DNA from: Patescibacteria group bacterium
Lineage (GTDB): Bacteria > Patescibacteriota > Patescibacteriia > 2-12-FULL-60-25
Direction of reading: 5' to 3'
NCBI GenBank assembly: GCA_018061025.1
Contig: JAGOUY010000005.1
Span: 11,377 to 75,376, forward strand
DNA length: 64,000 nt
Made by a program: the position numbers and the translations under genes. Position 1 is the stretch's first letter. Every line of letters begins with the position of its first letter. Below, one piece after another: positions 43,129 through 43,280 of this stretch. The notes below the pieces were generated by a model, which was not told where the DNA came from, did not search any database, and saw only the letters and a list, made by a program, of their open reading frames with translations.

Positions 43129-43280
43129 TTGGATAGTGATATATAGGCGATGGGTCTGCGTGTGGCACAGATAAAAAGGAGTACGCACATTTTCTTGCTA
43201 GAAAATCTGCTCAAATTTAGCCGTCGTCACGTCTAAATAGCCTCCTTTTTATCTGTGCCACACGCAGACCCTAGAAGGGG
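43129..43280 (+). ncRNA. hairpin element copy 4 (same flanks, 30-bp perfect stem, different 60-nt core)
   Basis: 5' flank TTGGATAGTGATATATAGGCGAT. Stem 43152-43181 pairs perfectly with 43242-43271. 3' flank TAGAAGGGG. The core folds into two small hairpins: ATTTTCT pairing with AGAAAAT, and ATTTAG pairing with CTAAAT. Confidence 0.5.

Follow-up and report, generated by a model that had tools for sequence, protein, structure and literature searches.

An intact type-B copy among the palindromic hairpin cassettes, probable interspersed mosaic DNA repeats, of a Patescibacteria genus

Patescibacteria have genomes that are among the smallest and most streamlined of all bacteria. Of the described elements with which the repeats reported here can be compared, the attC sites of integrons are recognized by their structure. 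The foot of the hairpin has conserved bases, whereas stem and tip vary, the tip being branched in some cases, and these sites undergo an exchange of the cassette type that is sensitive to the direction of replication. The attC stems are imperfect with extrahelical bases, and the sites stand in arrays next to intI and flank genes. In the BIME, REP and REPIN elements of Proteobacteria, conserved REP units of only 20-40 nt are combined with linker motifs into mosaics and are mobilized by the RAYT Y1 transposases. The IS200/IS605 elements, with two subterminal hairpins and the transposase TnpA, and their gene-less derivatives (PATEs) have strand-specific folded DNA and conserved sequence on the 5' side but neither terminal inverted repeats nor target duplications, and their active strand lies on the lagging-strand template (PMC5027513). 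The Correia elements (CREE) are hairpin-forming intergenic repeats of 100-160 bp which, as RNA, are substrates of RNase III (PMC2649163); their terminal inverted repeats, of 26 bp, are conserved, and they have a TA duplication. The Rickettsia palindromic elements (RPE) and the RHE/DHE of organelles (PMC2800124) are protein-less hairpin repeats of reduced genomes with no known mobilizing enzyme, and RPE are often found in frame inside genes.

The element studied here, copy 4, lies in a window of 64,000 nucleotides from a Patescibacteria assembly of 1.32 Mb in 18 contigs (G000), and it is an intact copy of type B, one of several types of palindromic hairpin cassette that probably make up a system of interspersed mosaic DNA repeats in this genus. 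Like REP/BIME, they are dispersed, high-copy intergenic palindromes with mosaic modules, gain and loss between relatives and a link to single-stranded DNA, and the same upstream and downstream modules are combined with different hairpins. They differ from REP/BIME in that the arms are private to each copy and it is the centre that is conserved, there is no RAYT gene, whole hairpin families are swapped in common junctions, and the orientation to replication is absolute. The features named above for IS200/IS605 and the PATEs, strand-specific folded DNA, conserved 5'-side sequence and lack of terminal inverted repeats and target duplications, are shared, but here there is a single hairpin of 100-180 nt with a branched tip, and TnpA and TnpB are absent from these genomes. 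Recognition by structure would be shared with attC, as are the conserved foot bases, the variable stem and tip, the cassette exchange and the dependence on replication direction, whereas here the stems are perfect (30 bp in copy 4), the copies are dispersed, the cassette is the hairpin itself and no connection with an integrase was noticed. As in CREE and the neisserial intergenic mosaic elements, promoter-like ends are possible and there is a mosaic organization that promotes recombination, but CREE have neither replication polarity nor multiple core families. RPE and RHE/DHE are similar in being protein-less hairpins of reduced genomes without a known mobilizing enzyme, but RPE do not have a conserved three-way-junction tip on private arms, shared junctions or polarity. 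Compared with REP/BIME, CREE, RPE, PATE and attC, the inverted design together with the unusually strict polarity makes these repeats a new variant.

Copy 4 begins with a 5' junction flank of 23 nt, TTGGATAGTGATATATAGGCGAT (43129..43151, + strand, read directly from the sequence), which is identical to that of the type-A copies in the window, as the initial annotation had claimed. The invariant part of this flank is the block ATAGGCGAT(G) that adjoins the hairpin. The closing stem, P1, has a 30-nt 5' arm, GGGTCTGCGTGTGGCACAGATAAAAAGGAG (43152..43181, +), identified by sequence, fold and covariation, of which the outer ~21 nt are variable and the inner AAAAAGGAG is conserved; the 3' arm (43242..43271, +) is its perfect complement by sequence and fold, and the 30-bp stem described earlier is thus confirmed. 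Between the arms lies the type-B core of 60 nt (43182..43241, +; TACGCAC...AATAGC), a three-way junction by fold and covariation, which is laid out as UAC, P2 at 43185-43210 with the loop UUGCUA, UCA, P3 at 43215-43238 with an inner CGU/ACG helix and a CGUC loop, and AGC. When copy 4 was folded with RNAfold the 30-bp stem and two inner hairpins were obtained at -72.9 kcal/mol (z = -7.95 compared to 200 shuffles), in agreement with the earlier description of the interior as two hairpins at a junction. Directly after the 3' arm comes TAGAAGGGGGTGAGGTGGGTGGGAAAGG, and the 3' junction, TAGAAG with a G/purine-rich tail, was read directly at 43272..43299 (+). A purine-rich tail on the 3' side is found in hairpins of all families in this bacterial family. 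The 3' flank had been given as CCCTAGA; the junction is indeed present, but the CCC belongs to the stem, and copy 4 has TAGAAG where the type-A copies have TAGATG. The flank motif ATATATAGGCGATGGG, a 16-mer, has 4 exact matches in the window compared to 0.49 expected. The type-A hairpins of the window are all on the + strand, at 25691..25853 (copy 1, with the same junctions), 35026..35188 (copy 2) and 41489..41652 (copy 3, ~200 nt 3' of polA). The best local alignment of the B core with the A core on either strand scored 13, no better than that of shuffled sequences (13.4 +/- 2.1), so that the two cores are unrelated, and in this the annotation was also right. In the window the 3' end of polA is followed by the type-A hairpin (41276-41652), and in another genus a type-B-like hairpin (L222, G066:C4) starts at the stop codon of an open reading frame that by eye is polA-like; this type of locus is occupied by different families in two genera.

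The left neighbour of copy 4 is the divergent gene rpsT for ribosomal protein S20 (42644..42913, - strand; PF01649, E = 1.6e-14), upstream of which a promoter, TTGACA-17-TACTCT, was read by eye on the minus strand. To the right is tRNA-Arg(CCU) at 43392-43466 (+; 43321..43466 with its promoter, from a promoter scan). A consensus scan placed the promoter of this tRNA gene, TTGACG-17-TATACT, at 43321-43349, and the tRNA therefore does not depend on copy 4 for a promoter. No promoter was called in the 5' flank of copy 4 by a sigma-70 consensus scan, there is no U-tract directly after the stem, where TAGAAGGGGG is found instead, and there is no terminator downstream. Upstream of copy 4 is a repeat module (42993..43128, +) that contains a GTCATCCC...GGGATC hairpin, a CCCCTCCTCCGGCGAGGAGGGG hairpin and CTATGAGCGAGTAGGGG. 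At 42993-43055 there is a short hairpin repeat, CGTCATCCCGAACGCAGTC...GGGATCTCGCAGC, which is high-copy in all eight members of the genus, including those without hairpin cassettes.

When the flank motif was searched genome-wide and the interiors were classified, as the initial annotation had proposed, about 45 elements with the same junctions were found in G000 and their cores fell into types A (about 30 copies), B (including copy 4) and C (5 copies). Type B is represented there by 9 copies, four with canonical junctions, three with diverged or missing junctions and two of a second subtype, and by about 20 further copies in three sister species (G001, G003 and G007); a fourth hairpin family, type D, was found in sister species. 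The alignment of 19 full type-B copies from 4 genomes gave a consensus of the 30-bp P1 and two inner helices with 47 pairs, 28 of which have compensatory changes, and in P3 these include AU/UA and UA/CG switches. The covariation called for by the first reading of the sequence is thus present. The core motif runs from GAGUACGC through a first hairpin, GCUC and a second hairpin, whose loop is CGUC, to AGCC. The covariance model of type B had strong matches in only 4 of the 8 genus members and weaker ones in 3 other genera of the family, where the core reads GAGUACGC-[..UUUUC UGCU GAAAA..]-GCUC-[CGUC-type-loop hairpin]-AGCCUCC and lies inside long, unrelated, well-paired stems without the ATAGGCGATG junction.

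A metagenome scan with GTACGC-N3-8-TTTTCTGCTGAAAA matched at least 120 contigs, and among the matches listed about 65 loci are such hairpins. In 72 aligned sequences from the other genera and the metagenomes, 87.7% of the cells were paired compared to 54.8% in shuffles, 46 of the 47 pairs covaried, and the covariation score was 0.685 compared to 0.162, while slid controls collapsed. The apparent G.U pairs in helix 5 of this large alignment are artefacts around a conserved 3-nt bulge. Of 401 genomes drawn from across the phylum, 9 contained the type-B motif according to a second model; they belong to several families and classes and have up to 8 copies each. The distribution of type B is patchy and multi-copy, its centre is highly conserved, and its core is an ancient three-way-junction module found across the phylum. 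Four metagenome contigs (L265, L277, L281 and L292) have an extra hairpin of ~40-60 nt in the apical loop of P3 (e.g. ...GTCACCACAGGAGTACTTCCAAGTTTCT...), so that P3 tolerates nested insertions. A copy of subtype B2 (G000 C9:84636-84798) lies within a further inverted repeat, TAGAACTCATTTCAAAAC / GTTTTGAAAGGAGTTCTA, and this outer repeat also flanks type-B copies on the unrelated metagenome contigs L229, L253 and L266.

At least four unrelated hairpin families (A, B, C and D) occur between the common junctions, ATAGGCGATG before the GGG...CCC of the hairpin base and TAGAWG with the purine-rich tail after it, and type-B hairpins are also present without them. Hairpins of each of the four or more families combine a long perfect stem with a folded core, and their docking context is made up of upstream modules, ATAGGCGATG, the hairpin, TAGAWG and the purine-rich tail. 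Upstream of the hairpins at four loci (types B, A, C and A) lies a module of ~165 nt with an identity of at least 90%. The module of copy 4 (window 42993-43154) is 95% identical to G000:C18:40484-40645, which precedes a type-A hairpin, and it recurs at 91-95% in G000 C18 (type A), G007:C18 (type A) and G001:C14 (type C). When such loci are aligned, the identity extends up to GGCGATGGG, is lost over the whole hairpin and resumes at CCCTAGA. At three orthologous loci, anchored by kilobases of synteny or by flanking genes, the hairpin family differs with the species. G000 has type A at the C18/C7 junction locus, where G007 and G003 have a type A whose arms are unrelated to it and G001 has type C. 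At C9:79949-80124 there is type C in G000 and type A in G003 within 3.8 kb and 0.9 kb of synteny, which breaks and returns at the hairpin base. The rpsT/tRNA-Arg spacer is occupied by type B (copy 4) in G000 and by type D in G005 and G006, while G002 and G003 lack an element there.

These comparisons show that whole hairpins have been replaced at fixed chromosomal loci between sister species, and that the unit exchanged is the entire hairpin including its stem, with breakpoints at the hairpin base where the loci could be aligned. The initial annotation had pictured a conserved chassis of flanks and long stem with the interior as exchangeable cargo. Its modular part stands, since at least four families share common junctions and orthologous loci differ, but the long stem is not part of the chassis; stems are specific to the family and to the copy and move with their core. 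The shared chassis is only the short junctions and the neighbouring modules. In ~80 copies, with a single exception, the core points the same way with respect to the flanks. No empty docking sites, in which the flank is joined straight to the tail, were found, only deletion remnants, and a contig scan with a 14-mer of the flank gave only chance matches. The assembly of G000 is interrupted by these repeats, since three contig ends (C7:110092, C14:121 and C18:54630) lie within the same type-A hairpin; by synteny with G001 and G007, C18 is adjacent to C7.

Base pairing in the stems is almost exclusively of the Watson-Crick type, with no excess of wobble pairs on either strand. In type-A and type-B stems together 15 G.T and 13 A.C mismatches were tallied from the stem listing, and in type B there were 9 G.U and 7 A.C in about 893 cells. 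The G.U excess that would have been taken as proof of RNA was not seen, G.U being rare and no commoner than A.C. In one pair of loci with ~90% identical flanks, 16 of 30 stem positions differ, all of them compensated and none in a single arm, and in the orthologues of L026 a one-base loss in an A/T tract is symmetric in both arms. Four hairpins (L002, L010, L017 and L064) are chimeric, their two arms being from different copies. In L012 (G003:C12:51314-51735) the type-A core is inverted between its own perfect arms, while the orthologue L043 (G007:C31) is normal, and this pair represents a natural inversion across 34-bp inverted repeats. Deletion remnants of hairpins occur at C7:77941, L016, L027 and L047. 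The chimeric arms, the one inverted core and the remnants show that copies recombine with one another, and with the compensated arms they fit recombination between copies and templated correction from arm to arm. A role of the variable stems as guides or antisense sequences was rejected, as only chance 12-16-mers were found elsewhere in the genome and no matches in viral contigs. Type-A and type-B cores were likewise not found in viral contigs, where three matches were coincidences in coding sequence.

In G000 the contigs are of two classes, eight with strong GC skew (absolute values of 0.15-0.23) and ten with almost none, and the density of elements is about three times higher on the skewed ones. 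The bin may be a chimera of close relatives, or the two classes may be true differences between regions. All 43 of 43 elements of G000, whatever their type, follow the sign of the local GC skew. On the eight strongly skewed contigs the top strand of the elements is on the G/T-rich leading strand in 32 of 32 cases, compared to a co-orientation of 68% for genes and 12 of 22 for tRNAs. The composition of this leading strand is G 28.6%, T 27.1%, C 20.4% and A 22.3%, the G-rich strand being also T-rich, as expected for leading strands. Half of the contigs of the assembly are almost without skew, and the inference about replication therefore rests on the other half. In the sister genome G003, 22 of 23 elements follow the skew, and 17 of 17 do so where its absolute value is at least 0.1. 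A top strand that lies on the leading strand has the same sequence as the lagging-strand template, which is transiently single-stranded at the fork, and the 32/32 and 17/17 on the strongly skewed DNA of these two genomes thus represent the same coupling to the lagging-strand template as in IS200/IS605 (PMC5027513). Among the metagenome type-B copies from other lineages, where GC skew is weak, the polarity (26 of 46) is not significant. With the elements masked, all 56 occurrences of the octamer TGGCGGTG in the skewed contigs (C3, C5, C8-C12 and C14) were on the leading strand and none on the lagging strand, and in the same table GGTGGCGG was at 67:6; both are candidate polar (KOPS/Chi-like) motifs.

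Genes that might mobilize the elements were looked for in these genomes. Y1_Tnp/RAYT (PF01797) was found only in G004 and G005, which are poor in elements, and not in G000, G001, G003 or G007, TnpB was not found in the element-rich genomes, and reverse transcriptases showed no correlation with the element load; RAYT, TnpB and reverse transcriptase were therefore rejected as mobilizers. In G000, where Y1_Tnp and TnpB are absent, there was also no long element between the junction motifs that could be an autonomous relative. A 516-aa open frame in G000 (C10:2960-3454) near tRNA-Val and tRNA-Gln has a weak reverse-transcriptase match (32.5 bits), and related frames occur in G001 and G003. As for the features of MITEs, conserved terminal inverted repeats are lacking because the arms differ between copies, the parts conserved between copies being the centre and the non-inverted junctions, and there are no target-site duplications that differ from site to site; the sole direct repeat in the flanks, (G/A)GATG(G/A)G, does not vary among the canonical copies and is missing from the non-canonical ones. 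Searches of Rfam returned only tRNAs in the window, and an E-value scan of types A-D gave only generic miRNA-precursor hairpins on both strands, far below the cut-offs. No description of these elements was found in the published literature. The almost purely Watson-Crick stems, the absence of a Y1 transposase and of TnpB and the absence of an Rfam match favour repeats that act at the level of DNA and are linked to replication.

We therefore lean, with some reserve, towards a mosaic DNA repeat system in which recombination would swap whole hairpins of several ancient families between shared junctions, copying at the DNA level would keep the stems perfect, and the elements would be tied to the replication fork by their folded top strand. 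Paralogous copies may exchange hairpins through their shared flanks, by homologous recombination or gene conversion, and what keeps the stems perfect may be intrastrand template switching, in which one arm serves as template for the other, and not selection on an RNA. If a copy is co-transcribed, its duplex of 30-35 bp would serve the mRNA, as a side effect, as an RNase III site or stability element. This explanation is weakened by the fact that in element-rich genomes Y1/RAYT and TnpB are absent and reverse transcriptase is uncorrelated. Without target-site duplications or conserved terminal inverted repeats, no known DNA-transposon scheme fits, and the unpaired nucleotides and the asymmetric bulge that are conserved at the scale of the phylum would equally suit a functional RNA. 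A bolder version, which we consider doubtful, is that this is an undescribed class of element recognized at its centre and not at its ends, in which the conserved three-way junction, formed when the top strand folds on the lagging-strand template, would be the recognition or catalytic module and ATAGGCGATG and TAGAWG on the two sides of the hairpin would form the docking site. Mobility or recombination would then be coupled to the replication fork and need no known transposase, and Patescibacteria would have an integron-like exchange of non-coding cassettes.

The main rival to the DNA-repeat reading, though a rather unlikely one, makes of the elements a group of small-RNA genes that share a promoter and a processing stem: an extended -10 box, TGaTATATA, would start transcription at the stem base, RNase III would release a stable core RNA, and the shared flanks would be an expression and processing cassette for several different RNAs. 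In many copies TGnTATATA does end 6-7 nt short of the stem. However, it is not this -10-like box that is invariant but the block ATAGGCGATG adjoining the hairpin, the TG is lacking in a second variant of the flank that is also common, GCCCTTCGGGCRGAAGARGRATATAGGCGAT, and type-B copies of other genera have no such flank. The consensus scan calls no promoter in the flank; the genuine promoters close by are of the TTGACG-17-TATACT and, by eye, TTGACA-17-TACTCT kind. The cores, as conserved and covarying three-way junctions with conserved loops, would suit an RNA, as would their constant orientation to the flanks and the intrinsic terminators that are found 25-40 nt downstream of some copies. Against this, G.U pairs are as rare as A.C mismatches, nothing in Rfam matches, and 30 to 50 dispersed copies per 1.3 Mb that are gained, lost and replaced between sister species are unlike RNA genes; the tRNA genes are co-oriented with replication in 12 of 22 cases, the elements in 32 of 32. 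We hold it to be quite unlikely that the copies are cis-acting mRNA elements (terminators, RNase III sites or 5'/3' stabilizers) of the Correia/REP/ERIC kind, kept by benefit to the host. All copies are intergenic and several begin a few nucleotides from a stop codon, and in some the purine-rich tail is at Shine-Dalgarno distance from a start codon (C3:7582), as this explanation would have it. Element orientation relative to genes is, in fact, loose; by our tally of 27 elements in co-directional gene pairs, 18 were sense and 9 antisense to both genes, and copy 4 lies between divergent promoters where no read-through is expected. A run of T (TTTT within the first 12 nt after the stem) occurred in 9 of 64 metagenome copies among the matches listed, and with none directly after copy 4 either, the hairpin was rejected as an intrinsic terminator. 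A plain hairpin would suffice for such roles, and the conserved core and the replication polarity would be left unexplained. A riboswitch or leader with a conserved neighbour gene was also considered for type B and rejected, as the neighbours, read by eye from translated open reading frames (peroxiredoxin, HPF, aldehyde dehydrogenase, polA, SecA/M50 protease), are unrelated, and those of copy 4 are rpsT and a tRNA gene.

That the elements are signals of chromosome architecture or replication maintained by the host would account for their absolute polarity, and the tails contain GGGGAGGG and GAGAAGGG. The KOPS consensus of E. coli is GGGNAGGG and the SRS of B. subtilis is GAGAAGGG, which we take the tail octamers to match. 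Outside the elements GGGGAGGG is at 39:6 and GAGAAGGG at 25:12, a moderate skew of the kind that base composition predicts, and a KOPS-like role of the tails was rejected because these octamers are not unusually skewed. Sister species are without elements, or without them at given loci, so that they are dispensable, and the several different cores would have no explanation; this makes the proposal very improbable. It is scarcely credible, finally, that copy 4 is a one-off decayed type-A copy with its core deleted or scrambled, which the initial annotation had named as the finding that would speak against its reading. Deletion remnants of hairpins do exist, as described above, but nine type-B copies are present in this genome and about 20 in sister genomes, and their core, which has no similarity to that of type A, covaries and is conserved in a family that extends across the phylum.

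By a rough estimate of about 45 elements of roughly 230 bp in 1.3 Mb, these repeats make up roughly 1% of the DNA of the genus, and to our knowledge very few mobile elements are known in this phylum. In these elements the usual design of a bacterial repeat is inverted, the centre being conserved and the arms private to each copy. They also cause breaks in the assembly of these metagenome-assembled genomes. Should the folded core be read by some factor on single-stranded DNA, the phylum would have a new way of moving or recombining DNA; should the cores be RNAs, several new classes of structured RNA would share one scaffold for their expression. In both cases the elements can serve in practice to mark the direction of replication.
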